From a virus (taxonomy: Duplodnaviria > Caudoviricetes), in the IMG/VR virus record IMGVR_UViG_3300048590_001377, positions 1 to 56,940 of that record: a DNA stretch of 56,940 nt. The stretch is one strand, 5' to 3'. Shown in pieces: positions 1 to 18,400 of this stretch (its first letter is position 1; each line of letters begins with the position of its first letter). The position numbers and the translations under genes were made by a program. The notes under the pieces were generated by a model. It saw only the letters and a program-made list of their open reading frames with translations. It did not search any database and was not told where the DNA came from.

Positions 1-219
1 TCACTTCCCCCGCCGGCGCAATGCCTGTGCAATGCTGCGAAACCTACTGGCCTCGTCCTCCAGCCGCCGCACTGCGTCGAACTTGCGGGCGGCACTGCGG
101 GTGGAGTCGGATGACGCCCACAGCACCTGCAATGCCCGCTGCTGCAAGTCCATCGCCTGGGCATCGGCCCATTCGGACTTCTTCACAAATCGGCGTGGCT
201 CGGCCTCAACCTGCATCAT
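1..219 (-). CDS. Hypothetical protein, 72 aa
   Basis: Start overlaps the stop of the giant gene (ATGA-type coupling); helical, charged sequence. Confidence 0.6.
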   Translation of the reverse strand: MMQVEAEPRRFVKKSEWADAQAMDLQQRALQVLWASSDSTRSAARKFDAVRRLEDEASRFRSIAQALRRRGK

Positions 220-3200
220 GGCGAACCTGCCCCGAAGCGCGCTTGCTCACGCGATCGATCCGCCAGATTCGGATTGAGTACCACCCCGCCCTGCGATCTG
301 TCCGAATACCGCTGCCGCGCCCGCAACGAGTTACGCAACGTGCTGGCTTTGATTCCAAGCTCCGGGTATTTGGCGTTGAACCGCCGGATGCCATCGAGCA
401 CCTTGGCATGAGCCTGTAGGTCATTCATGCGAAGCGCCATGGCGTAGGCATCCATCAATGCCTGCCTGCGCCCGATCACATGCGTCTCGAACTTCATGGC
501 AGCGTTGTTCGCCTCATACTGGGCCGACGCCTCAGCGAGTGAGAAGCCGGACGCCTGCGTCGCCAGTTGCCACGGACTCACGCCCTCGATCACCGGGTCA
601 CCACGCAAGGTGTTCACGCCCTCGGTGCCGAATCGGAACGCTTTGAGACCATCGCGAAACGCCTTGGGCAGGATTGTTTCCCAACCGCGCATGAGGTGGC
701 CTTCGTCCATCAGTTGCTTGCCGACGAACAGGTTCTTGCCCATGCCGAACACCGGGCCGGCCAACTGTTCCAAGTAGTAGGCGAAGGAGTCACGGCCTTC
801 CAGTTCGCGGTTTGGCTCACGAACCCACATGTCCGACAGTCCAACGCGGCCCGCAATGTTCGCACCGGTCAGTTCGTTCACCACGCCCTCAGTCACGATC
901 CGGCCACCACGCTGGCCCAGCACGTCGGCCAGGAAGTTGCGCAGCTCGGTTTCAGCGTCGAAATAGTCGTCATCGTCTCCGAAACTGGCGGCAACGGCAT
1001 TGAGCACCGTGAACACGATGGGCAACAACGGCATGCCCATGGCGCCGGCCATGATCCCGGTCATGCCCAGGGTGCCGGACAGGGTCTTGAGCGCCTGCCG
1101 GCGCACGGCCTTGGTCTCGCCCTTCAGGGCTTGGTAGGCGTTGCGGCCCAGGAACCAGGTCATGTTCTGGCTGTACTGCTTGAACAGGAACAACACCTTG
1201 GCGGTGTCCGACTGCATCCAGCGCGGGCGATTCGAATTTCCGTAGTTGAAGTGTGTCTTCCAGATCGCATCCGTCGCGAACTGCACGGCTTCATCGAAGC
1301 TCTTGCCGGCCAGGCGCATGGCCCGGAATGCGGCCATGCCGGTGGCCTCACGGTTCACCACCTCGGCCTTGTGGAACATGAAGGCGATGATCTCCATCGC
1401 CTTTGCATAGGCTGGGTTGTACTTGGTCGAGTCTCCTCCGCTCAGGCCCGCCAGGTTGTGGGCCAGGCTCTTGTCCAGCGCGCCGCGGTCCACCAGCATC
1501 CTGTATGCCCGGCGTTCTTCCGGTTTGGTCAGGGTCTTGCCGATGTTGCCGCCGGTGCGCAGCGCGTCCTTCATCGCCGATGTCAGCAGGGTGCTGGCCT
1601 TGGCCAGCCCGATGTCTGGATGGGCCGACAAGTGCGGGAGCGTGGTCTGCACCACCTGCGTCAGGTTCACCAGCGCGGTGGCCGGGGTCAGGCCCAGGTA
1701 GTAGACGAACCCCAGGCTGGTGGCCGTGCTGGCCGCGCGGGAGTTGGACGGGTTCATGATCCACTCGTGCCGCTTCTTCAGCTCGCTCAACATCGCGTCG
1801 GCCGCTGCAATCTGCTTCGGGTCGGCGTCGCCATGCTTGCGCACAGCATTGTTGTGCTTTTCGGCCCGGTTCACAAAGCCTTCGAGCTGGTGCGAATACT
1901 TCAAGCGCGCAATCTGATGGGCCTCGTGCAGCATGTTGCTGGCGAAGTTGCGGATCGCATCCTGCCCATAGCCTGAAACCGCCTTGCGGTGGATCGAGTG
2001 CTTGCGCTGACTCATTTCCGGCAGGGATTGCAGGTACATTTGGTAAATGTCGTCCTGCGCCTGTATCGGTGCGCCGGTCTTCTGTAGGTGCTGGATCACC
2101 TCGGTGATGAACTTCGCACTCGCACCTTCCAGCAAGCGCGCCTTCTCACCCTTGCGCCCGGTGGCCTTGATCTTGAAGCCTGCCGCCTTGAGTGCATCGA
2201 TCTCCTTCTGCCACTCGCCCACCTTCTCACGCATGATGTAGGTCGGCTCGCCTTCCGGGCTTTCGGCGGAAATCCAGAAATCACCCTGTCGCTGCAAGGG
2301 GAAATACGGCGCCTGCACCCGCTGGGCCTCGAACATCGCCTGAATCTTGGCGATGGTGGACTGCTTGCGCCGGTCGTCCATGTCCATGTCACGGATGCGC
2401 TGCTTCAACGCGGCTTCGCGCTGATCTCGGCGCTTGGCGTACATGTCCCGCGCCCGGCGGTACATGGCTTGGGCTTCCGGGCTGAGTGCCTGCCATTGCT
2501 CTTGCAGGGTCTTGTGGTCCTTCTCGCGCCGGGCGTTGCGCTTGATGAGTCCGCGCACTTCCTTGGCCCGTGCCAGCATCTCGCGCTTGGAGTCACCCGC
2601 ACGTCCACGCATCTGTTCACGGATGGCCAGCAACACCTGTTTCACGTTCTCCTTGTTGGCTTCCAGCTTCTGTCCACCGAACATGATCGGCAACGGCGCA
2701 AAGTCCTTAGCCGGATCCGTGCCGGCAATGGTGGCCTCGTGCATCAGGTCGTTCAGCGCGATGCTGTCCTCCCGGTGCTTGGCGGCCCACTTCTGCCACT
2801 CGTCGGCAAATGTGCCCGCCTCCTCCTGCATCACGTTCCGATCGACGTCCAGCTCCTGCAAGATGTCGGCGTAGTGCTTGATCTGCGGCAGACGCTTGCC
2901 AGCAAGTTCCACCAACTGATCCAGCGTGAACGCACCCAGCCACACCGGTCGGAACTGTTCCAACAGGTTCTTGGCGGCCTGCACCACGGCCTTGCCTGGG
3001 CGAAGCAGCTTCTCGAAGTTGCTGACGATGGCCGGCTCGTTGCCAACCAGCGGCGAGCCGGTTGGGTTGGATGGGGTGGGGTCTGGGCGGGAGAAAAACA
3101 CGGCAGCCTCACGGCCGGCCATGCCGCCCGTGGCCCCGGTGATACGCGACCAGTGCAGGCCGACGCGATCTTCCTTGCGGAGCGCCCGGTAGCGGGCATG

Positions 3201-6200
3201 AACATCCGCCAGCATGGGAAGAATCTGCCCCATCGGCAGTGATGCACTTCCGTCCGGATTGCGCAGCGCCGTCCAGCCCGCCGCAACTTCGCCATCCTGC
3301 CCGCGCGCATGATCGGCCCAGCCGCGCTTATGGAAGGCGCGGAACGTAGCGCGATCCGGGTTCGGCCCGTTCACATCCATTTCGCCCGTGCCAACGTGAA
3401 TCGTCCACGTCAGTGCAGGCTCCTCGTTCACTCCGGCCTCGACCTGCTCTTTGCCGAACACCTCAACCACCAAAGCCTCTTGCGGCATGCCTTGATTCTT
3501 GACCCTGGCGCGAGTCTGGTAGCCTGAGAACGGCCCTAGTCGTACAGAGAAATCCCGTGCCGCGTCATGTACGCCTCCAAGCTCTCGCGTCGCGGATTCC
3601 GAAAGTCTGCGAACCACGCGCTCAAGAGGGCGTGATTCCGCTCCGACAGCGGCGGAAGACTCAGGCGACGCGCCATCGGGTAGCTCGCCATAGGGCCGCC
3701 CCCATAGGCGAAGGTACGCGGCCTTGTCCTGTTCGGTGGTGATCCGTTCGCCCCATTCGTTGATTGGTCGCTCATCGCGGTTGCCCTGTTCTCGACCGGA
3801 GAGGTCGGCTTCCTGTTCCTGCGAGAGTAGGCCGAGCTGGCGCAGCACGTCCAGTTGATCCTGAGACAGATTGCCGACGCCGGATGGCATTTTCGTGGCA
3901 TCGTCTTTGCGGCTGAACATCGGCTGCCCAGCCAGCGCAGCGTCACGCATCTTCGGTGTCAGGTCGATGGCATGGACAGGTTTCAGCTTTGCCTCAACCG
4001 CCTTGATGCGATCTGAGGCCGGCATGGCGTCAAGTTCGGCCCTCGAATATCCGCTGGCGGCAGCGGCAGATTCAAGCTCTGCTGTGGTCGAACTGCCGAC
4101 AAGGCGCGTACTTCCAGCCCTTGCACCAAACGGCTTGGCCCACTTGTTCACGGCGGACGGCAGGATCTTGTCGTAGAAGCCGCGCATGCCGGAGCCGCCG
4201 ACTTTCAGGTCAACGCCTCGGAACTCGCGCTGCCCGCCATTGATCGCCTTGTCTGCGATCTCCTTCCCGACAATCTCCGCAAGCCCCTCCTTCGTCGTGC
4301 TGCGGATGTGTTCGAAGCCTTCGCCGTCACGCGCAACGCTAACCTCGATGGATTGATCGAAGTCGCCATCCAACCGGATCGCATCTACCTGCTTGCTCAG
4401 GTCATACCGCTCGGCCTGCTGCTCGCCCGTGGCCCAGGCGATCCGGTCAAAGCCGTTCTCTGCGGCCATGCGTACCATGCGCTTGAACGCGAGCATGGCC
4501 CACTCGTCGGTGGCCTTGAATGGGGCGTCGGGGACTGCGCCAAGCGCCGCGCGTAAATCTCGCCGGCCGAGCACCATCTGCGCAACCTGCGCGAGATTTG
4601 CGGCGAACTGATTTGGGGCGCTACCGCCGGCCAGCTTGTTCGTCACGGGCGAGCCATCCTTCGATGTCACCACCCAATTTGTGCCGTTGTGGGAAGCCGT
4701 ATAGCCGGCGTCCTCCAACAGCTTCAACACCTCGGCGTCAGGCCTGTCTGCTCGCGCATATCCCTGCTTCCGCCCCGCCTGGTGCCAGTCGCTCTGAATC
4801 TCCTCGAGGAACAGCACCTTCTTCCCATCCGCATCGGTGCGCTCGTTGAAGCGGACGTGGGCGAGGATGTTGGGCTGGTCGAAGTGGTTGGAGCGATAAA
4901 CACCTTGTCGAGTATCGTTACCAATAACTCGCTTGGAGCCATCGGGCATGGTTACATTGTAGGAGCCGTCTGCATTCTTCCAGTTGACCGTTCCACCACC
5001 AAGTTTGTCGCCAGCTTTTAACTCTTGAACGGGCAACGTCAGCAGCAGCTCGCGGTAGTTCTCGCCGCCGGGGAGTTGGTACTGGCCGAACTTGGTATCT
5101 GGCCCGCCCTCTGCGTACTGGGCAACCTCGTCACGATAGCGTTCGCGGGCATCGCGCCGCTCGGCATCGGTCAGTTCACTGTAGGGCGTTTCCTCGTTCG
5201 CGCCGCTCTCGTCGTTCCACCACGCCTCGACCTCGGCTTCAACTGCATCGTTGTCGCCCAGCACAACATCCTGCACCTGCACCTGATTGGCGCGGATGAA
5301 GTCGGTCAGATGATCGCGCGCCACAGCGCCGTCCTGCTTTGCCAGCCAGTCATCCACACCAAGCCAGTCACGTTCGGCCTGCTTCATCTCACCACGGCGA
5401 ATCGCACCATCCATCCAGCCCTTCCAGAATGCAGCATCGCCACCCTTCTTCGGCACGCCTTGCGCCTTGCTCACAGCATCAAGCATGGCGCTGTAGAAGG
5501 TCGGCGTGGATTGAGAGAACGCCATCTCGCGCGCCGGACGCCCCGTTGAGGCAGCCTGACCGCGTGGCGCCTGCGTCACCCGCTTGCGTCCACGGTACAG
5601 CGCATCCAGCAATTCCGCCTCACGGAACGCCTTGCTGATGTTCATGGGGATACCGAGCTTGGCAAGGAACTGGCGAATCTTCGCCACCACGCGCATGGTT
5701 AGGCCTGAGCGAATACCCTGCTCGGCCATGATCGCCAAGAACTCCTTGGCGAAGGTCTCGGCAGACTCATTGCCATAGCGCCGCTCGGCAGATTGCAGCG
5801 CCTTCCAAATCTTCGGCGACACATCGGATTGCTTGAGTCCGCGCAATCGCTTCACGTCAGCCACCAATCGTGCCCAGGCTTCCTTGCCCATCACCCGCTC
5901 GATGCCATAGTGGCCGATGGCCTCATGGCTCAGGGTTTCCAGGGCGCGAGCCACGTCACGGTTGTTGCCGGCCACGATCCAGACGGTTGAGCCGCCATCC
6001 CACCAGCCTTCTACGTCGCTCGGCGCATCGGCGGGCAGATTCGCGCCCTGCTTGCGAGCCTCGGCCACTGACCGCACTAACCGCACCACCGGCTTGTCGC
6101 CCTTCCAAGTGTCCAGCACATTGCGGACGGCAGCCTGCACGTCGGCGGCGCTGGTGAGAAAGCTGGATTTGTTGTTCTCCGCGCGCGAGTAGTACGGCGT

Positions 6201-9200
6201 GATCTGCGCCTTCTCTGGCGTCAAAAGGGCTTCGTCCCAGATCACATAGTTGTGACTGCCTTTGCCATCGCGGCGGCTGTTACCGTCCAGGTAGCGTAGG
6301 CCGGGGATGCCGATGGAGTTGAGTAGCGCCGAGCCAGCCTGCGGGTCTTTGCCATCGACGACGTAACGGCCAGCCTTCTCAGACGCCGAGTACGCACTGG
6401 CGGCGTCGTAGATGTCCCAGCCACTCATGAAGTCCAGCGCCTCAAATGGAGCGCGCTCCTTTATCGCCTTCCGCACCTTCTCCGGCTGCTCACTCAGCGG
6501 CTTGTCCCAATCCAACAGGTCGGAGTCTTCGGGGATTTCAGCGTGGTAGAGCTGGCCGCGCCCCTCCAACAACTGCTCCGCGCGCTCAATGGCAGCAACC
6601 GCCTGATCGTGCTCCGACTGCTCAATCTCACCGTCACGCAGGCTATCTGCGTACTGCCGACGAAGCACAGCAGGCGTGAGGTCTCCGGCCAGCAGTTCGT
6701 CGTACACCCCCGCCGCCATTCTGTCGCCGTTGCGGTCCGCCTCCTGCATCCAGCCACGAATCTTCTGTTCAACAGGCGTCGACAGGATCAGGGCACCGAA
6801 GGTCGCATCCGTCCTGACGTTCTCTGCGTACCACTCGGCAATCTCCCTACGGCTGGCAAAGTTCATGCCGTACCCATACGCCTGCGCCCCTGCGCCCGTA
6901 CCGATCTTGTTGAGCTTGAAGCCGGTCTGCTCGATGCCTCGATGCGGCGTGCCGTGCCACACCCTCTGCTCCAGCATGGAGCCATCCGCCGCCGTCCGCT
7001 GCACAGCCCCTTCGCGGATGCCCCGCGCAATCTCAGCGGCCAGCACACGCAGTTCCGACTTGGTGATCGGCCCAACAAGGCCCAGCTTGCGCAGTGCCGG
7101 TGTCAGGAAGTTGGCGATGAACCGATCCCACCACAGGCGCATGTTGCTCGGCGTGTCTTCGGCGATCCGCGCAAAGACTTCCTCGGCCTGCTCGATTTCG
7201 CTCTTGTCGGCGTACAGCGCCTTGATCTCCTTCCACACCCCTGACAGCGCCTTGCCGTCGCGGGTCCGGTTGATCCGATCAAGGATGTCCTGCTTTACCT
7301 TTGGCGGGAAAAGATTGAGGCCAAAGTGTCCCACCATCTCATGTATAAGCGCCTTGCGGGCGCTTCGTGCGTTCCGCACACGCATTGCCACGATGGCAAT
7401 GGTAGACGTTCCGGGGATGTATCCGGCGGTGAAGGTGTGGGGGCTTCCGTCCTCATTGGGCGGGAAGCCCGAGTAGTCTGGGACGACGACGACTTTGACC
7501 CCGTTCCGAGCCAAGCCGGCACGGCTAGATAGTCGGATTCCGGCAATGGCGTCTTCGACTTCCTGAACACTGAGCGGGTTCTCGATCGGATCGGTGGATT
7601 CGTTGTGGCGGGAGAATAGCACCACATTGCCGGTTTCCGGGTCGGTGCGGCTGAACATGCCCTCTGAACCACGCCGCGCTGCCAGCATTTCGTCGAGTGC
7701 GTCGCCGAGCCCGGCCTTGCGCAGCGCCTCGCGCTGGGTCTCCAGTCCGGCGTCTAGGGTCTTCTTGTCAGCAGCCTGCAGGTCCGGGCCCTTCATGAGC
7801 AGCAGGCGCTGGACGGACTTGAAGTCGCGACGCGCGCTGGCTAGGTTCTCTGCATCCGCGAATGGCTTGGCGGCTTCCTCGATGAACCGCTCCGCCTTGG
7901 TCCGTGCCTCCTCGATCTGTTCGGTCAGACTCGTCTTCTGCGCATCCAGCCTATCGACGGCATTGTTCATGCGCGTGATGAGACCGGAGGCAGAGAAACT
8001 GTCCGCTTCCTTGGCGACGAAGCTCAGAATGTCGCCAAGGTCGTTGCCAACATGCACGCTACCGAAGACGCCGGCCGTGACTTCGAACGACAGTCCGCGC
8101 CATTTGATGGTGAGGTCGTCTGGGTTGCGGCCAAGGACCACATCACGGGCGATCTCTCCAACAGCACGCGCGATGGCCTGAGTGAACTCCTTGCGATCGC
8201 TAATTTTCTTGCCACCCACGGCGCTCCCGGTCGGCACGCCTTCCTTGGTGTCCGGCAGGCGCTCTGCCAGCATCGTTTCGATTGTTTTGAGCTTGCGCGG
8301 CAGGTACTTTTCGGCGTCTTCCTTGGATCGCTGCGCGGCGCGGCGGGCAGCGACGACGTTGTCCGCATGCGCGGCTTCCAGGTTCTCCAGCCGCTTCACG
8401 TCGTTGCGGAGCTGGGTCTCGCGCAGGATCAGAGGATCGCCCGAGGCTGCGGCCTTCATGTCGGCGGCGTTGGACGCCTCGCCGTCGATGTCGTCGATCT
8501 CGTTGATGGTGCCGTCGAAGGTGCGGAGTTGCTCGATGCCGCGCGCCTTGTGTTCGAGGATCTGCCAGCGACGAGCGTCGTAGGTCTGCGCCGTGGCGTA
8601 GCGGTAGATTCCGACCTCGAACCCTTCCGGATCGCGGTCGTAGAGCTTGTTGCCACGTCGGATCACGCGGCCTTCGCGCTGTTCCAGGTCGGACGGCTTC
8701 CACGGGGCGTCGATGTGGTGCAGCGCGACGGCGCGTTCCTGCACATTGGTGCCGGCGCCCATCTTCGGTGTCGAGCCGAACAGAACGCGCACGTCGCCAC
8801 GGTTCACCGCCGCGAACAGCTTAGCCTTGGCGGACGGTGTACTGTAGTCGTGAATGAAGGCGATCTCCCGCTCCGGGATGCCGTTTTTTATCAGCTTCGC
8901 CCGCATATCGTCGTACACGCTGAAGCCGGCCGAGGCGCTCACGCCGGCAATGTCCTGTAGGGTGACCGCCTCAACTTCTGCGGTGTCGATCTCGTTGGCG
9001 TCGTTGTACTCGTCGATCTCCTCCTGTTGCAACTCACCAGAGGCTTCACGGTCTTTGACCCAGCGCGCGCGCGCGTCGGCTCCGGCCAGCGCAGACTCCG
9101 CCCATTCCTTCGCGGCGGCTCGGCTCGGCTGGTCATCTGCCATCAGGTGCCCGGTCGCGGCGTCGTACACGGCGAACGCCGCCGGGCGGTCCTTCGTTTT

Positions 9201-12200
9201 CGCACGCGCCTCGACGATCAGGAACGGCAGTTCCTCGGCACCTTCAAGCGAGTGCAGCGTCGCCCGCCTGTGGATCACAGAGCCGTCTGTGTCGCGCACG
9301 TAGGCACGCTTGGGCTTGTTCGCCAGCGCGGCACGCGCCGAGATCGGCACGCTCATGTCGCAGAACACCAACTGCGTGCCCTTGTCCTTCTTCCAAGCCT
9401 TGTACTCGGCGACGATGTTGTCCACCGCACGGTTGATCTTGGAATCCGGGAAGTCCGGCGCGTTCGGGTTGATCAGACGGTAATCAAGTCCAGCCTTGTT
9501 CGCTTCGCCGGTGAGCGAGAGCGCGTTGACCTTGCCCTTGGTTTCACGGGTCAGCTCGCGCACACGGGCAAAGCGACCAAGCACTGATTTCTCGTCGAGA
9601 TCGATCTCTGGCGTGAGCGCTGCCTCGACAGCACCAGCGCGCGCCTCCTCGGCATTTTCGTAGGTACCCAGCGCGATGGCTTGCGTATCGTCCCCCGCCT
9701 TGTGCATGCGCAGGAACACCTTGCCGTCCATGTCCTCGGTCTCGAAGGTATCGCCATGTGCAAGGTCGAGCTTGAACTTCGCTCCACCGTCCGGCCAGCG
9801 CGAGAGCTTTGGAACGCCCATGAAGTCAGCGACCAACGGCGAGCGTGGCGCGACGACCAATTGAGGGCGGCCGCCCTTCACCTTCGGCACCGGGAACCGC
9901 CCGCCGCGCGCCTCCTCCTGCACCTTGAGGTCGTCCAGCGTGATGACATCGGCAAAGGACAGGTAGTCGGCCATCAACGATGACAGGTTCTGGAACTTGG
10001 CGAAGCGGCTGGATGCACGGAAGCCGGAGCCCGACGGCGCGACCTCGTAGACATTTTCGACACTGCCGTAAGCGCGCGCCCATGCATCGAACATATGCAG
10101 GCCGTCGCGCTTCATCTGCGGGTACTGCATGTAGCGCTGGACGTTGTACATCTCCACCAGCGAATTGCTGACCGGCGTCCCGGTGGCCGTGATGAGCGGC
10201 GCCTGATCGCCGTAGGTCTTGAACAGCCACTGGGTCTTCATGAACAGGTCGAAGGCACGCGCCGAGCCCTTCGGATTGCCCATGCCGGGCACCTTGGTCA
10301 TGGTCGAACTGTAGGTCAGGTTCTTGAATTCGTGAAGTTCGTCCACTCCCAGAGCATCGAGGCCGAGCTCGTCGAAGGTCAGCACCTTGTCGCGGGGGCC
10401 CGCGGCGCTCAGCCGCTCCTTCATCTTGGCTTCGAGGTTCCTCTTGATCCCCTCCATGTCGCGGACAATGTTGCGGTCGCCGCGCTCACGCTTGATCTCC
10501 TCGATGGCCTTGGCAAGGTCGTCGATCTGCTCCTTCAGGATATTGGCCTCCACTTCCGACGGCAGTCCGATCTTCTTCAGCGAACTGTGGCCGAGGATGA
10601 CCGCATCCCAATCGCCGGTAACAATCTTGGAGAACAGCTTGGGTCGGTTCTCTTTGGAGAAATCCTCCGGGCGGGCAGCCAGCACGCGCGCTCCCGGATA
10701 GAGTCGAGTGAACTCACTACGCCATTGCAAGGTCAGGTGGTTGGGCACCGCCAGCACCGGCTTACGCGCGATGCCAAGCCGGCGCATCTCCATGATCATG
10801 CCGACGATCTGGAACGTCTTGCCAGCGCCAACGACGTGATCCAGCAAGATTTGGCGCGACTGAAGGCCGCGCCAAATCCCGTCGAGCTGGTGCTTGAGCA
10901 ACGTGATCGCAGGATTCTTGCCCGGCAAAGACAGGTGCGAACCGTCGTAGCTGCGACGCACCGTGCGATTCATCTTGTCGTTGTACTCGGCGAGCACCTT
11001 CTCCCCGCGCTCTGGGTCACGCCAGAGCCAGGACTTCCACTCATTGCGGATAGCGTTCTGCTTCTCGCGCGCGGCCTCGGTCTCGGCTTCCAGCACGATG
11101 GTGCGGGTCGAGTCGCCGACCTTCTCCGTCTTGGTGACGACCACGGTGCGCCCGTCGATGGTCTGCTGGATGATCTTGTCGGCACCAATGTGCGGCGTGC
11201 CCCAGGTCTGGGCGTTGCGCACCTCGTCAATGTGGCCGGTCTTGTTGAACATCCAGCGACCCAGCGACTTCACATAGCTGGTCGAAACCTTCGCGCCAGT
11301 GATGTGCTCAATGAAGTCTTCCACGATGGAACTCGGCACGAAGTGCGCGCCAAGAGAAATGTGGATCTCGCTGGGGCTCTTGTCCTTCGGGATAACGGCC
11401 TTGAGCGCCTTGACGTTGCGCGTGAACGCGGAATCGGCCTTAGCCGCAGCCTCGGCCTCCGCGAGCTTGGTCTTCACGTCGCCGGACAGGTAGGCGTCTG
11501 CGGTCTCAATACCGCCCTCCGGCGTCGAGTACACCAGATCGCCGAGTTCCGCGACGATGGCATCCTGATCCTTGCCGTAAACCCGCGCCATGTAAGCGGG
11601 GTCAACCGTGCCACGGTAATTGAGGCTGGCGATCAATGCGTCTTTGGCGCTGAACACCGCCTGCATATCGTTCTGCGGGAACGCGACCCGTCGCTCGAAG
11701 ATGTCGGCCTTCCTCGCCGATGCAGCGCGAGGCTCGATGCCTTCCCTGTCGGCAACCGCCTTGCTGATGCCATTGTCGTAGTCGAACTCCAGCGCCTGCA
11801 CGAGATCGCTGTCGCTGTCCTCCTTGAACAAGCGGTAATTGGTCGGCGAGTTCAGGTAGCCGTGCTCCTTCAGGAAGGTGTCGTAGGCTTTGTTCAGGCG
11901 ATTGCGGCTGGCGGCAATCGCTTTGTCTGTTGCCAGCGGGTCGCGTTCCAGAAGCATCTGCGCACGCAGGGCATCGCGCACGGCAATCATGCCACGCATG
12001 CGGGCTTCGGCCTTGGCGTTCGGCGGCGTCCACGCATCCGCAGTCTTCGCACCTGCGGTGTCCTCACCACGTTGCTGGATTACACCCTTGCCATCCACGT
12101 AGTAGCTGCCGACCTTGATCCCGTCCGGCACCTCGGCCTTCTGCATTGATTCGGTGCGGTCGATCGGCTGGTAGATGCCTTCTGGCAAGCGGTTGACCCA

Positions 12201-15200
12201 TTCCGTCAGTTGCGTGGCAAGATCGCCGCTTGCCTTCACCGTGTAGTCATTGGCGCGGTACATGCTGCCGCCTGCCGTCGGCTCACCCAGCACGTTCTCT
12301 GGGTGAGCGAGGAAGTATTGGCTAACGTTGTGCTCGCTCGATTCGCCAGTCTTTGGGTTCTCCAGCTTCTGCCTGCCCGAGTCCACCCATGCGCGTTCAC
12401 CATTCGGGATGCCGTTTTGGTGCTTCTGGAACACCAGCACGTCGGTGACGACTTCCGTGCCGGCGTTGCCCTTGAACGCGGTATCCGGCAGTCGTACAGC
12501 GGCGACCAGGCTGGCGCGTTCGGCGATCCACTTGCGTGCCCGGTTGTCGCGCGCGTCTAGGAAATTGTGCGAGACCACCATCATCGCAACGCCGCCGGGG
12601 CGCAGTTTGTCGATGGTCTTCGCTATGAAGTAGTTGTGAATGCTGAACCCTGAATACGGGCTGCGGTCGCTGTCCGCGATGGGTTCTTCGCCGAACGGTG
12701 GGTTGCCGATTGCAGCGTCAAAGAAGCCGCCCGGAACTTGGTAGTCCTCGAAGCCGCTGTTGGTAATCCGCGCGGACGGATACAGTCCAGCGGCGATCTT
12801 GGACGTGATCGGATCCAGCTCCACGCCAAACAGTTCGGCAGACTGGCGCAAGCGCGCCGGCATCATGCCGAAGAAGTTGCCTGTGCCGACGCTGGGCTCC
12901 AGTAGGCGTCCCTTGGTGAAGCCGAGGCGCTGAAGGCCATCGATCATCGGAGCCACGACTTCCTGACTTGTGAAGTGCGCATTGCGCGTGGACGCGCGCG
13001 CTGCGGCGTACTCGTCCGACGTCAACAGCTCCTTGAGTTCGGCATGCTGCTTGGCCCACTGCTTGTTGTTCTGGTCGAACACACCCTTGAGCGCGCCCCA
13101 GCCGACGTAGCGGGCAAGCTGCTTGCGTTCTTCAGGGGTGGCGACTCGGCCTTCAGCTTCGAGCGTCTTGACGATGCGGATAGCCGCGACGTTCTCGCGG
13201 TACTTTGTGGCCAGTCCGCCCTTGCCGAGGGCTTCCCCGGTGAGGTCGAAGTCCTCTACGGCGTCGGCGGTGCCGGGCTCAGCCCGTACAGTTCCGCGAT
13301 CTCGTGCTTCGCCAGATGCGTCATCGCGCGAGATTCGTACTGCACCTTGGCTTCCGTCTCTTCCTGCTCCCGAAGCGCCTGCAAAAAGATCCCCTGCGCC
13401 AGCAGCGCCTTCACCTGCTTCGGCCACCCCAGCATCCACCGATCCGCGATTTGCAGCGCCAGCGGCGGCATCGCTTCCATCTTCGCGAGCACGTCCGCCG
13501 GATACGAGCGGCGGCTGACCAGATTGTCGGTTTGCTTGGTCTGGAGCATCGACGGCCTCCTGTGCAGGATTATGCGCGTTTTCGGTGGTAGGTGCAACCG
13601 ACAGTGGGGCCTTCCCGGCGGCCGGTACCGCATCGGTCAAGCCATCCCGACCAATGACATTGACCGGGACGCGAACCGGCAAGGTGCCCTTGTTGCTGCC
13701 GTCCACCCACGGGTGACGCTGGACGTGGCTGGCCAGCTCGGCGGCCAGCTCGGCAGCGGTCAAGTCCGCCCGGCCCCACTGGTTGGCACCGCTCTTGCCC
13801 TGGGTGCCATTCGTGGTGCGGTACATCAGGGCAATGCCGCTGGTGGTGGAAGGCACCGCCCCGCGCAGTGTGGTGTCGCCGACATGCACGTAGATCCCGG
13901 TTCCATCCGGGGCGACCATGTGCAGGTACACGTCGCCAGAGCCGGCCATCCCGCTCTCGTTGACGCTCACGGCCTTGGCAGGCTTTCCCTTGCGGTCCAG
14001 CGTCACGGTGTAGCCCTGGTCCTCCAGCGCCTCGGCCACGGCCTTGAGGTAGGCGGACGCATCCTTCAGGAAGGCGTCCTTGGTGTCGTTGCCCTTCTCG
14101 CGGCTGCTCGTGTTCGAGTAGCCATTGATGTGGTCCACGCCCCAGTCGTCGCGCAGGGTGCGCGCGCCGCGGTCGGTGGTGGCCTTGGCGCGGGTCTTGC
14201 GCGGCGGCTTGGCATTGCCGATCGCATCCGCCTGCAGGTCGGCCGGGGTCAACAGCGCGTCGAACTCACGCTGGGCGTCGGCCGCGCTGTCCATCCCCTT
14301 GGCGTCGACGCCAGGGTAGTAGCGTACGCCCTCGTAGAAGCTCAGCAGGTACGGCTTGATCGCATCGCCCAGGTCATCCACCATCGCCTTGGCGTAGTCA
14401 GCGAACTTGCGCACTCCGGACTCAATGTAGGCACCGGCGATGGTCACGCCGTCCACGAACAACTCAGGATCCACACCGCTGTTGAGCTGGCCCAGCTTGG
14501 CCTTGAGCCGCGCTTTCGCGGCTGCAACCTTGTCGCTGGTGAACATCTTGTTGTTGGCGAACCGATCGGCGGTAGCCGCATCGTCGTCTACTATGTCAGC
14601 GTGCGTGGCTGCATCGCCAACCCCTTCAACAACGTAATCCTTCAAATCGCGTGGCCCAAGGATTGAGCGGAATACAGTTTTCTTCCCCTCCTGCGATGGC
14701 GTCGCCATTTCCTTCTTGGCCGAGTAGTCATCGGACCAGTAGATCCAGACATTCCCGCTGTTATCCACAGTGCGAACAACTCCACGAACCTTGGGATCGT
14801 GCACAGAATGGATGCGTCTCCCACGCATTCCCTCCACGCTGGCGTCAAGCTGGTCCAAATGCACATTGCCTGCGTCCTTGGATTCCTTCACGCGCTCGTC
14901 GTATTGCTCGTTGAAGCTCAGGTTGGTGTTTTTTGTTGGCGTGCCTTGCGTGGCGATACCAAGCACGCCATCCACCGCAGCGCGTGCAGATTTGTCGATA
15001 TACCGGATGTTCTTTGGCGTTCCGTCTCGGCTTCGCTCGAAGAGCGCCACCGCACGCCCATCCTCACCCACAACGGCGAACTCACCGCGCTTGGCGGCGC
15101 TGTTGTCTTCGATGCGGTATGTGGGTGTAGCCGGGTTGGCCTTGCCTCCGCCCTCGCTCGATGTCGCAACTTCTTGTCCCGCCTCGTCGTCTAAGATGTC

Positions 15201-18200
15201 TGCGTGCGTACCCTCCTTGAAGGGCGGGCCTGTGCGAACGCGCCCGTGCTCCACGGTGTAGTACGTGCCTGCTTTGCTCTTGCGGATGGGTGATCCATGG
15301 ATGTCCTCGCCGACAATGGGGTCGTTGGCTGGATCGACAGTCTCACGCGGGGTGCTCACAGCCTTCTGCACCGCCTTCGGCCCCACGCGCCCCGTGGAAC
15401 CATCATCAAAGGTGATGCCATAGTTCTTGCCAAGGCTGGTGACTGAGCCGGACTTGCCCTTGTGCGCGCCGCCCGTGATGTTCACGCGGTCGCCAACGAC
15501 GGGCGCGGCAGGTTCGGCGCTCGATTGGGCTGGCTGCGCGGCCTTTTGGTCGGCGTCCGATTTCCGAATTGCCACAAAGCCAGCGCCGTGCGCCGTGATC
15601 TCGTAGTCGTCAAGGTTCTGGCCGTCATCGGTCACGGCCTTCTTCGCCGCCCGCGCGGTCTTGAACGGCTTCTCGCCAGTGCGCGTCGTGATGGCGTAGT
15701 ACGGCAAGCCTGGGCCAGCCGCACGCTTGCTGCCGTCCAGATCAAGGTTCTCGCGGTGGATGGTCTGGTGTCGGTCTTTTGCGCGGTACTGTGTGCCACG
15801 GCTGGTGTACATCGGAAGCTGTGTCGCGCTTTCGTCAGCCAGCGCATCCTTGTGGACAAAGACGGTTTTCCCGTTCACGTCCTTCGTCTTCACCAAGTCC
15901 GAAGGCGAAACGTCACGCTGGTAATGCTTGAGGTGGATGGCCGTCTTGATGCCGGGGGGTGCGACCTGTGCATCAGGCTCGACCGCTTCCGGCGTTGCTG
16001 GCTCGGATGGCGTGGCGGGCTCGTCTTGGGTTTCATCAGGGGCAGCAAGGTCTGCATCAGGGGCAACAATGGGCGGCATGCCGGCACGCTGTTCGTCCGC
16101 GTTCTGCGGCAGGGGTCCATCGGGCGCGGCTGCAATCGAATCCGGTGCAGCATCAGGGAATGGCACGGCGGGCCGTACCGGCTCAGGCGCGGCCACTTCT
16201 GGGGATTGTGCGCTCGCCACTTCTGGCGCCCCGGCACTTTCTGCGGTTGGCGCTGCGGTCGCAGGCGTGAAGCCCTTGCGAATGTCGCGCGCCACCTTGG
16301 TGATGGCCGTGGGCGATACGTCAACGCCGCTGGCCTGCCATGCGTAGGCGATGGCGTCCGAATCCAGTGCTGTGTTTCCGTGCGCGGCAAACTGCGCCTG
16401 CATCTGCGATTCCAGCGCGGCGCGCATATCCTCGCGGCCTGGAATGGCGACTGCGCCGGTTTCCTGATTCACCCACGATGGCGTCAATGGCGCAACGATG
16501 CCATTTTGTGCAGGCGGTACGGCGCGTGGTGGCGCTTCTTCCGGCTGGGGTTCTGGAACTTGGGCTTGATCCTGGGCCGACGGCTCCGCAAGGTCGGCTC
16601 CCAACATGTTGGCCAGCATGGCCGGGTTGCCCATGTTGCGACGCAAGACGGTCTGCAACTCGGCTTCAGCGTCGGTCAGCCCGCCTTCGCCGGCGGCCCA
16701 AGCATCCAACTCGGCGAGCTTGGCTTGGGCGCGTCGCGTCACTTCGTCGGCGGCGATTTGCCGACGTTTCGGCGCGGCATTGGCGGGTGCCAGCGTCTGC
16801 ACCACAGCGGAAAGATCGCCCGAACCGGGTTGTGTCGTCGCCAGTGCGTTGACGGCATCCGATGCGGTACTTGGCTTGGCTCCGGGAAAGGGAATCTGCG
16901 GACGCACTGGCGTGCCGGTTGCCGCAGCATCGGTCACGCCGTTGGGTTTTTGGCTGGTCTGGCCGGTGGCGGGGTTGATGATTGCCGGGCGGGCTTTGTT
17001 CCCAGTCTGCACCAGATAGTCCGCAAGGTTCTGCTCTGCGTAGGCGCGTGTTTCAGGCGTCGGGGCCGAAGCCACATCTTCGCGCAGGCGTTTGATGGTT
17101 CCGGCTTGGATCGCCGCCGTGATGTCCGTAGGGTCGCGGCTCAGAACGCGATCCAATCGCTCGTTCGTATTCCCATCGCTCGGCGCTTGGAGCGCCCCCG
17201 CAGGAACGCCCATTCCAGCGCCCAGCACCGCGCCCAAGGCACCGGCCTTGCCGACACCCTCATCCCACGGGCGAAAGGTCCGCACGTTCTGACTGATTTG
17301 CTCACCGGACTCGGCGATGCCTTCCTCTGCCGCCTCACCCGCGCCACCCAACAAGGCGTTGCGCCAGCGTGATGCGCCCGCTGCGCCTTGCCCGAGCATC
17401 GCTTTTTCGATGGTCGCACCGTGCGGAATCAGGAATGGCGTGACCGCATTGATGGCAAACGACTCGGCAAAGGCGTTCGACTCGGCATTCTTGATGAGCC
17501 AGTCCCGAACATCCTCATCCGAATCCGTTTCCAGCGCCGCCTTGAGCCGCCCAAACTCAGGTTGCGCCTTGAGCTTCTCCATCGGCATGGCTTCGAGCGT
17601 TGCCCGAACCTCGTTGCCCTGGAGTGATCCCGCCATCGCCGCCTGCAATCCGACGTTGAAGGCCGTGGCTGCCCGCTCGCCCGCCAACGCCGACTGCGCG
17701 CCACGCGCCAGCGCACCCGCCGTGGTCGCACCCTTGGCCACCACGCCACCCGGCACCATCTGCGCCAACACCTTGGTGGCTTCCGTTGCCGTGTAGGCCG
17801 GGTTCGTCGCCAGAAACTTGGCGGTATCCCACGCGCCTTCGGTGTCGTTGAGCTGTTCGGCCTGCATTTGGTGGCCCACGGACATCTTGCTGCGCTGGTC
17901 GGCGGCAATGTCGTGGAACACGCCTGCCGCCTTCTTCACGACATCGGGTTGCTCGATATGCAGTGCCTTCTGGATACCCACGCCCGTGCTCGGGCTGAGT
18001 TTCTCGATCGCCATGCGCAAGGGCGAATACGCTACGGCGGCATTGACCAGCCCAACCGGCGCCTCGATCAATCCACCCACGGCGGACGCCACACCTTCGC
18101 CGGCGGCATGGCGCTGATCGGAGATGAACTCACCAAACGTCCGACCGACCGGCGCGGCCGACATGCCGGGGCCGTTGTACCCATCGGCCGCGGGCGGCAG

Positions 18201-18338
18201 CGGATCGCGTGTTGGCGGTTTTGAATCAGACTGCCCAACATCAGGCCGCTGAATCTTCGACCTCAGAACATCGTCGAACAAGCCCGGCGAGCTTTGTCTG
18301 TTGCCATCACCGAGAACATCGTCGAACAAGCCGGCCAT
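216..18338 (-). CDS. Giant polyvalent virion/ejection protein (~6040 aa): DarB-like N6-adenine methyltransferase + SNF2-type helicase, two metallopeptidase-like modules, ART-like module, PLxRFG-like C-terminal region
   Basis: Start re-called to MAGLFDD (ATG at 18338, AAGGA upstream). MTase motifs EPSVGTGNF (~12874-12900) and NPPF (12693-12704). Helicase motifs HVVGAGKT (~10815-10838), DELH, TGTP, QREGRVIRRGN. HEMVGH (~7326-7343) and HEAIGH (~5910-5927). WHGTPH..GTG..QAYG (~6870-6960). YFPLQRQG (~2284-2310). Confidence 0.9.
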   Translation of the reverse strand: MAGLFDDVLGDGNRQSSPGLFDDVLRSKIQRPDVGQSDSKPPTRDPLPPAADGYNGPGMSAAPVGRTFGEFISDQRHAAGEGVASAVGGLIEAPVGLVNAAVAYSPLRMAIEKLSPSTGVGIQKALHIEQPDVVKKAAGVFHDIAADQRSKMSVGHQMQAEQLNDTEGAWDTAKFLATNPAYTATEATKVLAQMVPGGVVAKGATTAGALARGAQSALAGERAATAFNVGLQAAMAGSLQGNEVRATLEAMPMEKLKAQPEFGRLKAALETDSDEDVRDWLIKNAESNAFAESFAINAVTPFLIPHGATIEKAMLGQGAAGASRWRNALLGGAGEAAEEGIAESGEQISQNVRTFRPWDEGVGKAGALGAVLGAGMGVPAGALQAPSDGNTNERLDRVLSRDPTDITAAIQAGTIKRLREDVASAPTPETRAYAEQNLADYLVQTGNKARPAIINPATGQTSQKPNGVTDAAATGTPVRPQIPFPGAKPSTASDAVNALATTQPGSGDLSAVVQTLAPANAAPKRRQIAADEVTRRAQAKLAELDAWAAGEGGLTDAEAELQTVLRRNMGNPAMLANMLGADLAEPSAQDQAQVPEPQPEEAPPRAVPPAQNGIVAPLTPSWVNQETGAVAIPGREDMRAALESQMQAQFAAHGNTALDSDAIAYAWQASGVDVSPTAITKVARDIRKGFTPATAAPTAESAGAPEVASAQSPEVAAPEPVRPAVPFPDAAPDSIAAAPDGPLPQNADEQRAGMPPIVAPDADLAAPDETQDEPATPSEPATPEAVEPDAQVAPPGIKTAIHLKHYQRDVSPSDLVKTKDVNGKTVFVHKDALADESATQLPMYTSRGTQYRAKDRHQTIHRENLDLDGSKRAAGPGLPYYAITTRTGEKPFKTARAAKKAVTDDGQNLDDYEITAHGAGFVAIRKSDADQKAAQPAQSSAEPAAPVVGDRVNITGGAHKGKSGSVTSLGKNYGITFDDGSTGRVGPKAVQKAVSTPRETVDPANDPIVGEDIHGSPIRKSKAGTYYTVEHGRVRTGPPFKEGTHADILDDEAGQEVATSSEGGGKANPATPTYRIEDNSAAKRGEFAVVGEDGRAVALFERSRDGTPKNIRYIDKSARAAVDGVLGIATQGTPTKNTNLSFNEQYDERVKESKDAGNVHLDQLDASVEGMRGRRIHSVHDPKVRGVVRTVDNSGNVWIYWSDDYSAKKEMATPSQEGKKTVFRSILGPRDLKDYVVEGVGDAATHADIVDDDAATADRFANNKMFTSDKVAAAKARLKAKLGQLNSGVDPELFVDGVTIAGAYIESGVRKFADYAKAMVDDLGDAIKPYLLSFYEGVRYYPGVDAKGMDSAADAQREFDALLTPADLQADAIGNAKPPRKTRAKATTDRGARTLRDDWGVDHINGYSNTSSREKGNDTKDAFLKDASAYLKAVAEALEDQGYTVTLDRKGKPAKAVSVNESGMAGSGDVYLHMVAPDGTGIYVHVGDTTLRGAVPSTTSGIALMYRTTNGTQGKSGANQWGRADLTAAELAAELASHVQRHPWVDGSNKGTLPVRVPVNVIGRDGLTDAVPAAGKAPLSVAPTTENAHNPAQEAVDAPDQANRQSGQPPLVSGGRAREDGSDAAAGAANRGSVDAGVAEAGEGAAGAGDLFAGASGAGRDGSQGAVRISRDDASGEARDRGTVRAEPGTADAVEDFDLTGEALGKGGLATKYRENVAAIRIVKTLEAEGRVATPEERKQLARYVGWGALKGVFDQNNKQWAKQHAELKELLTSDEYAAARASTRNAHFTSQEVVAPMIDGLQRLGFTKGRLLEPSVGTGNFFGMMPARLRQSAELFGVELDPITSKIAAGLYPSARITNSGFEDYQVPGGFFDAAIGNPPFGEEPIADSDRSPYSGFSIHNYFIAKTIDKLRPGGVAMMVVSHNFLDARDNRARKWIAERASLVAAVRLPDTAFKGNAGTEVVTDVLVFQKHQNGIPNGERAWVDSGRQKLENPKTGESSEHNVSQYFLAHPENVLGEPTAGGSMYRANDYTVKASGDLATQLTEWVNRLPEGIYQPIDRTESMQKAEVPDGIKVGSYYVDGKGVIQQRGEDTAGAKTADAWTPPNAKAEARMRGMIAVRDALRAQMLLERDPLATDKAIAASRNRLNKAYDTFLKEHGYLNSPTNYRLFKEDSDSDLVQALEFDYDNGISKAVADREGIEPRAASARKADIFERRVAFPQNDMQAVFSAKDALIASLNYRGTVDPAYMARVYGKDQDAIVAELGDLVYSTPEGGIETADAYLSGDVKTKLAEAEAAAKADSAFTRNVKALKAVIPKDKSPSEIHISLGAHFVPSSIVEDFIEHITGAKVSTSYVKSLGRWMFNKTGHIDEVRNAQTWGTPHIGADKIIQQTIDGRTVVVTKTEKVGDSTRTIVLEAETEAAREKQNAIRNEWKSWLWRDPERGEKVLAEYNDKMNRTVRRSYDGSHLSLPGKNPAITLLKHQLDGIWRGLQSRQILLDHVVGAGKTFQIVGMIMEMRRLGIARKPVLAVPNHLTLQWRSEFTRLYPGARVLAARPEDFSKENRPKLFSKIVTGDWDAVILGHSSLKKIGLPSEVEANILKEQIDDLAKAIEEIKRERGDRNIVRDMEGIKRNLEAKMKERLSAAGPRDKVLTFDELGLDALGVDELHEFKNLTYSSTMTKVPGMGNPKGSARAFDLFMKTQWLFKTYGDQAPLITATGTPVSNSLVEMYNVQRYMQYPQMKRDGLHMFDAWARAYGSVENVYEVAPSGSGFRASSRFAKFQNLSSLMADYLSFADVITLDDLKVQEEARGGRFPVPKVKGGRPQLVVAPRSPLVADFMGVPKLSRWPDGGAKFKLDLAHGDTFETEDMDGKVFLRMHKAGDDTQAIALGTYENAEEARAGAVEAALTPEIDLDEKSVLGRFARVRELTRETKGKVNALSLTGEANKAGLDYRLINPNAPDFPDSKINRAVDNIVAEYKAWKKDKGTQLVFCDMSVPISARAALANKPKRAYVRDTDGSVIHRRATLHSLEGAEELPFLIVEARAKTKDRPAAFAVYDAATGHLMADDQPSRAAAKEWAESALAGADARARWVKDREASGELQQEEIDEYNDANEIDTAEVEAVTLQDIAGVSASAGFSVYDDMRAKLIKNGIPEREIAFIHDYSTPSAKAKLFAAVNRGDVRVLFGSTPKMGAGTNVQERAVALHHIDAPWKPSDLEQREGRVIRRGNKLYDRDPEGFEVGIYRYATAQTYDARRWQILEHKARGIEQLRTFDGTINEIDDIDGEASNAADMKAAASGDPLILRETQLRNDVKRLENLEAAHADNVVAARRAAQRSKEDAEKYLPRKLKTIETMLAERLPDTKEGVPTGSAVGGKKISDRKEFTQAIARAVGEIARDVVLGRNPDDLTIKWRGLSFEVTAGVFGSVHVGNDLGDILSFVAKEADSFSASGLITRMNNAVDRLDAQKTSLTEQIEEARTKAERFIEEAAKPFADAENLASARRDFKSVQRLLLMKGPDLQAADKKTLDAGLETQREALRKAGLGDALDEMLAARRGSEGMFSRTDPETGNVVLFSRHNESTDPIENPLSVQEVEDAIAGIRLSSRAGLARNGVKVVVVPDYSGFPPNEDGSPHTFTAGYIPGTSTIAIVAMRVRNARSARKALIHEMVGHFGLNLFPPKVKQDILDRINRTRDGKALSGVWKEIKALYADKSEIEQAEEVFARIAEDTPSNMRLWWDRFIANFLTPALRKLGLVGPITKSELRVLAAEIARGIREGAVQRTAADGSMLEQRVWHGTPHRGIEQTGFKLNKIGTGAGAQAYGYGMNFASRREIAEWYAENVRTDATFGALILSTPVEQKIRGWMQEADRNGDRMAAGVYDELLAGDLTPAVLRRQYADSLRDGEIEQSEHDQAVAAIERAEQLLEGRGQLYHAEIPEDSDLLDWDKPLSEQPEKVRKAIKERAPFEALDFMSGWDIYDAASAYSASEKAGRYVVDGKDPQAGSALLNSIGIPGLRYLDGNSRRDGKGSHNYVIWDEALLTPEKAQITPYYSRAENNKSSFLTSAADVQAAVRNVLDTWKGDKPVVRLVRSVAEARKQGANLPADAPSDVEGWWDGGSTVWIVAGNNRDVARALETLSHEAIGHYGIERVMGKEAWARLVADVKRLRGLKQSDVSPKIWKALQSAERRYGNESAETFAKEFLAIMAEQGIRSGLTMRVVAKIRQFLAKLGIPMNISKAFREAELLDALYRGRKRVTQAPRGQAASTGRPAREMAFSQSTPTFYSAMLDAVSKAQGVPKKGGDAAFWKGWMDGAIRRGEMKQAERDWLGVDDWLAKQDGAVARDHLTDFIRANQVQVQDVVLGDNDAVEAEVEAWWNDESGANEETPYSELTDAERRDARERYRDEVAQYAEGGPDTKFGQYQLPGGENYRELLLTLPVQELKAGDKLGGGTVNWKNADGSYNVTMPDGSKRVIGNDTRQGVYRSNHFDQPNILAHVRFNERTDADGKKVLFLEEIQSDWHQAGRKQGYARADRPDAEVLKLLEDAGYTASHNGTNWVVTSKDGSPVTNKLAGGSAPNQFAANLAQVAQMVLGRRDLRAALGAVPDAPFKATDEWAMLAFKRMVRMAAENGFDRIAWATGEQQAERYDLSKQVDAIRLDGDFDQSIEVSVARDGEGFEHIRSTTKEGLAEIVGKEIADKAINGGQREFRGVDLKVGGSGMRGFYDKILPSAVNKWAKPFGARAGSTRLVGSSTTAELESAAAASGYSRAELDAMPASDRIKAVEAKLKPVHAIDLTPKMRDAALAGQPMFSRKDDATKMPSGVGNLSQDQLDVLRQLGLLSQEQEADLSGREQGNRDERPINEWGERITTEQDKAAYLRLWGRPYGELPDGASPESSAAVGAESRPLERVVRRLSESATRELGGVHDAARDFSVRLGPFSGYQTRARVKNQGMPQEALVVEVFGKEQVEAGVNEEPALTWTIHVGTGEMDVNGPNPDRATFRAFHKRGWADHARGQDGEVAAGWTALRNPDGSASLPMGQILPMLADVHARYRALRKEDRVGLHWSRITGATGGMAGREAAVFFSRPDPTPSNPTGSPLVGNEPAIVSNFEKLLRPGKAVVQAAKNLLEQFRPVWLGAFTLDQLVELAGKRLPQIKHYADILQELDVDRNVMQEEAGTFADEWQKWAAKHREDSIALNDLMHEATIAGTDPAKDFAPLPIMFGGQKLEANKENVKQVLLAIREQMRGRAGDSKREMLARAKEVRGLIKRNARREKDHKTLQEQWQALSPEAQAMYRRARDMYAKRRDQREAALKQRIRDMDMDDRRKQSTIAKIQAMFEAQRVQAPYFPLQRQGDFWISAESPEGEPTYIMREKVGEWQKEIDALKAAGFKIKATGRKGEKARLLEGASAKFITEVIQHLQKTGAPIQAQDDIYQMYLQSLPEMSQRKHSIHRKAVSGYGQDAIRNFASNMLHEAHQIARLKYSHQLEGFVNRAEKHNNAVRKHGDADPKQIAAADAMLSELKKRHEWIMNPSNSRAASTATSLGFVYYLGLTPATALVNLTQVVQTTLPHLSAHPDIGLAKASTLLTSAMKDALRTGGNIGKTLTKPEERRAYRMLVDRGALDKSLAHNLAGLSGGDSTKYNPAYAKAMEIIAFMFHKAEVVNREATGMAAFRAMRLAGKSFDEAVQFATDAIWKTHFNYGNSNRPRWMQSDTAKVLFLFKQYSQNMTWFLGRNAYQALKGETKAVRRQALKTLSGTLGMTGIMAGAMGMPLLPIVFTVLNAVAASFGDDDDYFDAETELRNFLADVLGQRGGRIVTEGVVNELTGANIAGRVGLSDMWVREPNRELEGRDSFAYYLEQLAGPVFGMGKNLFVGKQLMDEGHLMRGWETILPKAFRDGLKAFRFGTEGVNTLRGDPVIEGVSPWQLATQASGFSLAEASAQYEANNAAMKFETHVIGRRQALMDAYAMALRMNDLQAHAKVLDGIRRFNAKYPELGIKASTLRNSLRARQRYSDRSQGGVVLNPNLADRSREQARFGAGSP
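13256..13549 (-). CDS. Putative nested same-strand, alternative-frame gene inside the giant gene, 97 aa
   Basis: AGGAGG 6 nt before the ATG. The product (MLQTKQ...IADRWMLGWPKQVKALL...HLAKHEIAELYGLSPAPP) looks globular, while the host frame here is a G/A/R/D-rich linker. Confidence 0.65.
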   Translation of the reverse strand: MLQTKQTDNLVSRRSYPADVLAKMEAMPPLALQIADRWMLGWPKQVKALLAQGIFLQALREQEETEAKVQYESRAMTHLAKHEIAELYGLSPAPPTP

Positions 18339-18400
18339 CTTGATTCCTTGAGAAAGGGGCAGCCTTTCGGCGGCCATAAGTGTGCGTGAATTGAGCGCGA

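Follow-up and report, generated by a model that had tools for sequence, protein, structure and literature searches.

Does a phage giant gene hold a second, smaller gene that is read from the same strand in another frame? This question is raised by IMGVR_UViG_3300048590_001377, a virus record (Duplodnaviria; Caudoviricetes) representing a provirus, which we analysed over its 56,940 bases (63% guanine plus cytosine, GC); this whole stretch is referred to below as the window. A giant gene of 6053 codons lies on its minus strand (216..18377), which from its length and Pfam matches encodes a polyvalent DarB-like protein. Enclosed in it, at 13256..13549 on the same strand, is an open reading frame (ORF) of 97 codons plus a TAG stop, which stands in the +1 frame of the giant gene and would give a helical protein of about 95 residues. 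We find that this nested ORF is very probably a genuine embedded gene, dual-coded with the giant frame. We put the probability of this at about 85%, a figure that refers to the coding and not to the function of the product.

The coordinates agree with what a preliminary description of the window had reported, namely a 97-codon ORF on the same strand, in another frame, with AGGAGG 6 nucleotides (nt) upstream. On the minus strand the ORF runs from an ATG at 13549-13547 to the TAG at 13258-13256, and the AGGAGG Shine-Dalgarno (SD) sequence (13556..13561, minus strand) stands six bases (CCGTCG) ahead of the ATG. AGGAGG occurs 13 times in the sense strand of the giant gene, and only the copy at the nested ORF has an ATG 3–10 nt downstream. 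An alternative start further upstream, the ATG at 13633, is not conserved and would lengthen the protein by 28 junk-like residues. As alternative-frame ORFs of 100–170 codons are common in the window, the length of the nested ORF alone is not above chance; the translations of two such ORFs, at 15890-16390 and 2831-3310, are junk-like and rich in Arg, Pro and Ser.

The codon-position GC signature at the nested ORF is exceptional. Over the whole giant gene GC1/2/3 is 0.66/0.46/0.77, and in the interval 13577-13278 the values are 0.85/0.66/0.38 when read in the giant frame and 0.66/0.38/0.85 when read in the nested frame, the latter being a normal coding pattern. The giant-frame GC3 of 0.38 is the minimum among 5957 segments of 291 nt, and in the other listed intervals of the giant gene GC3 never falls below 0.56. 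The second-lowest value (0.56) belongs to a Pro/Ala/Glu-rich linker of the giant protein (15765-16475, minus strand). The 166-codon +1 ORF in it (15890-16390) is junk, and we therefore take this linker to contain no nested gene. The public runs that include the stretch around the nested ORF hold it as contigs; in three independent assemblies, 13100-13750 is covered with 2, 34 and 19 substitutions and no indel, which excludes an assembly frameshift. In a variant of 95% identity, 9 substitutions fall within the 294-nt ORF and 20 within the 201 nt directly upstream.

Relatives of the nested protein, here called family 1, are found well beyond the window. Pattern scans recovered 21 viral and 16 genomic loci with 34–60% identity, the genomic ones including Lysobacter, Variovorax, Rubrivivax, Methylotenera, Methylophilaceae and Porticoccaceae, and tblastn added Pseudomonas phage 8P and two MOBP plasmids, of Acidovorax carolinensis and Cupriavidus metallidurans, which brings the total to 40 other loci (37 loci and 3 annotated records). 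A tBLASTn comparison had been proposed at the outset as a check, and the homologues do sit at the same place in DarB-like genes, with no stop codon interrupting the nested frame in any of the relatives. A word-index search returned two free-standing small proteins, of 95 amino acids (aa; 54% identity) and 92 aa (43%); among longer proteins it gave no fused form of family 1, a blank that is weak evidence. Searching 1.84 billion cluster representatives with a profile gave 141 matches at E ≤ 0.001 (83 at E ≤ 1e-10), all of them proteins of 38–431 aa and none part of a giant protein.

In an alignment of 32 distinct family-1 members, indels in the core are of one codon only. The start is conserved in 41/41 sequences as an ATG (once GTG) about 29–35 codons before an invariant RW, and GGAG, AGGA or GAGG occurs within 20 nt before the aligned start in most of the 41, as judged by eye and not by a scripted count; the motif is weak in four loci (L005, L006, L008 and L011). 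In L050 and L051 (1716-2366), the giant gene encloses two family-1 ORFs in tandem that share one frame; the first copy is divergent and apparently truncated (positions 6–61 of the hidden Markov model, HMM), the second is complete, and the giant frame is open over both. The small proteins of L032, L034 and L035, like most members of the second family described below, end with a conserved PP motif and, behind it, a tail that is variable and strongly acidic and is predicted to be disordered in the model of that second family.

Both frames are maintained, the small frame for its sequence and the giant frame only as an open, low-complexity linker. Among 341 pairs of sequences with 50–65% nucleotide identity, the small frame had an amino-acid identity of 0.47, compared with 0.29 for the giant and 0.31 for the third frame. 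The ratio of nonsynonymous to synonymous substitution rates (dN/dS, NG86), calculated for 42 pairs at 70–97% identity, was 0.31 in the small frame, 1.64 in the giant frame and 1.12 in the third. The selective constraint that the preliminary description had placed in the nested frame is thus present there by both measures. Translation likewise returned the low-complexity peptide that it had quoted for the giant frame: over 13256..13549 (minus strand) the giant protein, at residues ~1610–1707, is a linker rich in Gly, Ala, Asp, Arg and Ser that is open and unconserved in sequence, and even in phages of 39% GC the peptide is a linker rich in Gly, Ala, Asp, Arg, Ser and Thr.

The giant frame, which is +2 relative to the small frame, is open over the entire small ORF in 34/34 distinct nucleotide sequences. 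To see how often this would arise by chance we re-encoded the same small protein with the codon usage of the flanks. The simulated chance of an open giant frame was ≤0.38 everywhere, ≤0.004 in eight loci with a GC content of 0.39–0.48, and 0.11–0.21 in the window itself. Giant-frame ORFs of 600 to >3900 codons, often ended by a contig edge, are present in 33 of the 37 loci. In L009 and L026 the giant ORF is broken some 440 nt past the small ORF by a single in-frame stop near 6726-6728, and beyond this stop the same frame runs for 1837 further codons.

We also approached the locus from its other side, through the 790-residue methylase region downstream of the small ORF (alignment A3), for which 80 viral loci with 38–62% identity were kept out of 251 confirmed relatives. 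Family 1 is present in 26 of the 80. Where methylase identity is at least 52% it is found in 25 of 26 loci, the 26th (L047) having no upstream DNA, and below 52% there is a single family-1 locus (L083, at 47%). A second family of ORFs of 80–130 codons, family 2 (for example MNLQNWISQAREHWKEHQPKRF...), occupies 49/80 loci, and in each of the 49 it is again a +1 ORF within an open giant frame; that giant frame is open in 46/46 distinct family-2 sequences, with a simulated chance of 0–0.26. An ATG and an SD sequence are present in those family-2 loci where starts were picked. The HMMs found neither family in 5/80 loci; three of these (L104, L110 and L114) show look-alike +1 ORFs by eye, one is L047, and in L120 no family-1, family-2 or look-alike +1 ORF was found. 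In about a dozen loci the nested ORF lies ~500 nt further upstream, with another domain between it and the module. AlphaFold2 models of the two families (mean predicted local distance difference test, pLDDT, 80.4 for family 1 and 76.6 for family 2) have the same order of four helices, family 1 having an extra N-terminal helix and thus five in all (predicted template modelling score 0.70). Among longer proteins the word-index search found one with a family-2 domain, the metagenomic P0146 of 238 aa, in which it is joined in frame to an N-terminal domain similar to the part of the giant protein that precedes the linker.

The small gene had been expected to be missed by standard annotation and to travel with the methylase-helicase module. 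The former is true of the phage records, which list only the giant gene, and the latter is seen in phages and also in plasmids. In phage 8P one coding sequence (CDS) of 5145 codons spans the match, the small gene is unannotated, and the offset of 5155 nt places it in the +1 frame; the record labels this homologue of the giant protein 'structural protein'. With a family-2 protein as query, tblastn matched 21 phage records, corresponding to 12 phages after GenBank/RefSeq twins are merged, and only one product is listed under each of the 21 matches. Three of these records were checked by CDS coordinates, and in PEp14, which has one giant CDS of 4914 codons, and VvAW1 the giant CDS encloses the ORF in its +1 frame; the third record, PBC5, is considered below. 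In Pseudomonas phage Itty13 (L123, MW460249, 5006-11419) long hypothetical CDSs are annotated on the strand opposite the family-2 ORF, probably a wrong-strand call over the giant gene. In the two plasmids, the Prokaryotic Genome Annotation Pipeline (PGAP) has annotated the small gene, as a hypothetical protein, and lets an 'N-6 DNA methylase' begin 177–300 nt later. The methylase frame of both is open from 430–450 nt upstream of the small gene, with several start codons there, and the upstream peptide RLK[VL]TG.EL is common to both plasmids and the Methylotenera locus L030, from which we conclude that the nesting holds in plasmids too.

In the window, the giant gene is the last of a minus-strand morphogenesis operon with genes for terminase, portal, head-closure, and tail or virion proteins. 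From its matches to an Eco57I-type methylase, Helicase_C and LPD39 in Pfam, the giant ORF is, at the level of sequence, a DarB-like polyvalent protein in the sense of the accessible part of PMC5512222. The adenine methylase core with its NPPF motif (12495..12728, minus strand, as are the following features; residues 1884–1961) matches at E 7e-07 and 29.9 bits (cut-off 25.3). The superfamily 2 (SF2) helicase region extends over 8652..10865, from ResIII (residues 2505–2580; 17.9 bits, under the cut-off of 22.5) to Helicase_C (residues 3162–3242; 25.5 bits, over the cut-off of 23.5), and the polyvalent-protein marker LPD39 lies at 2304..2990 (E 2.8e-40, 138.5 bits, cut-off 27). Directly after the linker, conservation of the giant frame across loci marks the start of a module, EDFDLTGEALGKGGL...YVGWGALKGVFD (13074..13255), which opens with a GKGG motif and a conserved helical segment. 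The nested ORF, which had been described as stopping just before the DarB-like module, ends one codon ahead of EDFDLTGEALGKGGL. Across loci, its end is 0–45 codons before the giant-frame motif D-F-D-L-x-G-E-x-I-G-K-G-G-L-x-K-Y-R-D-N. This fits the GxG(G/A/S) motif of LPD36, which the available text of PMC5512222 places N-terminal to the methylase and describes as having four helices; Pfam gave no LPD36 match in the giant protein, and our assignment is by motif only. After position 6285 of L027 the giant frame jumps from the first LPD36-like helices to AGLGEALDELLA..., a segment that in the window lies far downstream, which suggests an internal deletion of the methylase-helicase part.

We suggest that ribosomes start independently at the internal SD sequence and ATG within the mRNA of the giant gene and would read the 97 codons in the +1 frame, giving a small protein predicted to have four to five helices. 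For ribosomes on the giant gene, in frame 0, this stretch would encode a disordered linker between domains, shortly ahead of the LPD36-methylase-helicase module. The small protein would be under selection for its sequence, the giant frame only for the absence of stops. The small frame is probably the older of the two, since the normal codon signature is found there and the giant frame is an unconstrained linker; judging from these sequence features, the giant gene may have been joined across a once-separate small gene by read-through in the other frame.

One may ask whether the giant ORF is one gene at all. It could be a row of three genes, an N-terminal one, the small one and one for the methylase-helicase, with the linker frame open by chance in GC-rich DNA, and relative to a GC3-rich gene it is indeed this frame that is likeliest to be open by chance. 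The chance of 0.11–0.21 for the window, the annotation of the plasmid versions as separate genes and the in-frame stop in L009 and L026 are in line with such an arrangement, which we nevertheless hold to be highly improbable: the frame is open in every distinct sequence of both families, with a chance of ≤0.004 at low GC, the N-terminal and methylase parts share one frame in 33/37 loci with core indels of single codons only, and single CDSs are annotated in 8P and PEp14. In the window, moreover, the N-terminal part would be left without a stop, and there is no ATG, GTG or TTG between the small stop and the conserved module. Nor does it seem at all likely that a programmed +1 shift makes the small domain the C-terminal end of a truncated isoform, with no independent initiation. 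The fusion in P0146 would fit this, as would Sinorhizobium phage PBC5 (L126), in which the small ORF is in frame with the upstream gp22, which ends at the stop of the small ORF; in both L096 and PBC5 the small ORF shares its frame with the N-terminal part of the giant protein, and the methylase frame opens only ~580 nt upstream of the small ORF's stop. However, L101 and L103, close relatives of PBC5, have one continuous giant frame with the N-terminal part in the methylase frame, which makes an isolated frameshift, or a sequencing error of older date, the probable reading of PBC5. Both start codon and SD are conserved, and the small frame is closed by a stop 0–6 codons ahead of the ATG in L003, L020–L022, L025, L030 and L037; a shift site would have no space there, and a frameshift route is therefore unlikely.

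The small ORF and its linker could also be a selfish in-frame insertion and not a working partner of the giant protein. For this there is the precedent of ShiLan (accessible part of PMC11855218), and the site lies between domains, either directly before the LPD36 motif or ~500 nt upstream with a domain between; the tandem copies in L050 and L051 and the survival of the small ORF where the methylase gene is gone could be read in the same way. On the other hand, there is no nuclease or recombinase signature: the window protein has no match in Pfam or PHROG, and the model is small and all-helical. The type of family furthermore tracks methylase identity (family 1 at 52% or more, family 2 mostly below), a vertical pattern, and no presence/absence difference was seen among close relatives, so that we give an insertion of this kind very little weight. 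That the small frame is dead or a chance ORF, conserved as a by-product of constraint on the giant protein, deserves scarcely any credence; ORFs of such length are common in alternative frames here, but the frame-specific tests already contradict this idea, as the giant peptide is no better conserved (0.29) than the third frame (0.31), against 0.47 for the small frame, and dN/dS is 0.31 against 1.64. The conserved start, SD and stop and the confident AlphaFold2 model likewise speak against it.

Several observations weigh against the embedded gene that we favor. The window protein has no Pfam or PHROG family match, and Foldseek found no structural relative of the family-1 model at E < 1 in the PDB or BFVD. 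In four of the 37 loci (L023, L025, L033 and L037, which include two cultured Lysobacter genomes) the small ORF is intact and the giant frame is only 135–367 codons long, with the methylase module missing or broken off just behind what is left of its first motif; even there no stop closes the other frame over the small ORF. The small protein may thus work without the methylase module, or these loci may be recent remnants. Since the loci share descent, locus counts are not counts of independent events. In darB of phage P1, neither family has a nested representative at E ≤ 10. The match between families 1 and 2 is weak (hhalign probability 35%, E 4e-4, 58 columns), as is the link of family 2 to the Pfam family TnpV (PF14198), which 14 of 24 members match at E ≤ 1, the best at 1e-4; the score shown for the first member, 16.6 bits, is below the curated cut-off of 27 bits.

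Searches for a function gave little to build on. Among 27 family-1 members, Pfam returned scattered matches only, the largest being DUF6365 in 4/27, and neither the window protein nor these 27 matched TnpV; a six-frame search of the window for TnpV gave nothing at E ≤ 10. For the family-2 model the best PDB match by Foldseek is 2apl (E 1.3), PDB sequence searches with both family profiles gave nothing convincing, and the ESM Atlas returned only unnamed clusters of hypothetical proteins. The small protein has no profile similarity to the downstream methylase region (probability 0.5%), and a complex prediction in which it was paired with the LPD36-methylase region of 790 residues (alignments A2 and A3, respectively) ended in 'no answer' with a score of 0.00, which is evidence neither way. 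We found no literature on Pseudomonas phage 8P and none linking TnpV with DarB, in a search for which subscription journals were mostly outside scope, and the accessible part of the polyvalent-protein paper (PMC5512222) makes no mention of an overlapping gene, a frameshift, TnpV or a linker.

We tentatively propose, at somewhat less than even odds, that the small protein is an accessory factor of the DarB-like module, for example a regulator or transport chaperone, because of its constant position before the methylase-helicase module. In that case it could be the functional counterpart of the small Ulx that P1 needs beside DarB, a likeness in role and not in sequence. The preliminary description had suggested a small partner of the module that might be an inhibitor, a chaperone or a packaging factor; that the small gene also occurs on plasmids argues against a purely capsid-packaging role. 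A role in DNA binding is also possible by analogy, as TnpV has been postulated, though merely postulated, to act like Xis (accessible part of PMC3158075). Doubtful as a whole, in our view, is a broader scenario in which the hidden gene is ancient and near-universal in a large DarB-like clade of phages and plasmids, giant genes were built by an overprinting fusion of an upstream effector with the methylase-helicase, and the embedded TnpV-like protein is an obligatory cofactor that, for instance, keeps the methylase-helicase inactive or transport-competent in the donor cell.

Annotation pipelines forbid a same-strand gene inside a gene, and a conserved family therefore goes unrecorded; isolated phages with the unrecorded small gene include 8P, PEp14, Pavtok, SopranoGao, LASTA, VvAW1, PBC5 and Atu_ph08. 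As the mechanism and the helpers of DarB-type modules are poorly understood beyond P1, a small gene at the entrance of such a module is a concrete candidate for a missing accessory factor. We point out that the locus is an unusually clean and deeply conserved case of dual coding in a bacterial virus, in which one frame is constrained for sequence and the other for openness, and that it suggests a route by which giant polyvalent genes could be built across an intervening gene.

The closest known system in terms of the host protein is DarB of phage P1, a methylase-helicase anti-restriction protein with small co-encoded helpers, whose delivery with the virion is a P1 feature; according to the accessible part of PMC12810830, Ulx cooperates with DarB and DdrB in countering restriction by EcoB and EcoK. 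Unlike the nested gene, Ulx (146 aa) is encoded by a separate gene downstream of darB, and it does not resemble the nested protein at the profile level (hhalign probability 0.6%). In the available text on Bcep22-like phages (PMC9144972), no homologues of Ulx or the other P1 helpers were found beside DarB-like genes. TnpV is likewise a small helical protein of mobile elements, of the clostridial Tn4451 type, and shares with family 2 a motif of the type W/H-x-x-x-x-P-K-x-[YFV]-x-x-L-x-x-x-G-x-L, but is encoded by a free-standing gene beside a serine recombinase. The ShiLan insertion is placed in frame in a phage methylase gene, hides an out-of-frame nuclease and is actively homing, as reported in the accessible part of PMC11855218, and so resembles our locus in that a stop-free stretch in a phage methylase frame hides a second protein in another frame. 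It differs in that no nuclease signature is found here and that inheritance follows the methylase clade.

With respect to gene arrangement, the nearest parallel is Rz1, which is embedded in Rz in the spanin genes of phage lambda and many other phages. In both cases a larger gene entirely encloses a smaller one, which is read from the same strand in the +1 frame and has a ribosome-binding site of its own; the spanin products of Rz1 and Rz are both used. The spanin frames, however, are both ordered and functional, whereas the host frame here is an unconserved linker of a 6053-residue protein, and here the embedded frame appears to be the older one and its predicted product is a soluble helical protein and not a lipoprotein. 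As for an embedded gene, we find an enclosed ORF with its own conserved start and ribosome-binding site, purifying selection on its sequence and a host frame kept open beyond chance. Embedded genes as such are thus already known from Rz1 in Rz, and what is new is the nested family, its host gene and the pattern in which one frame is kept for its sequence and the other for its openness.

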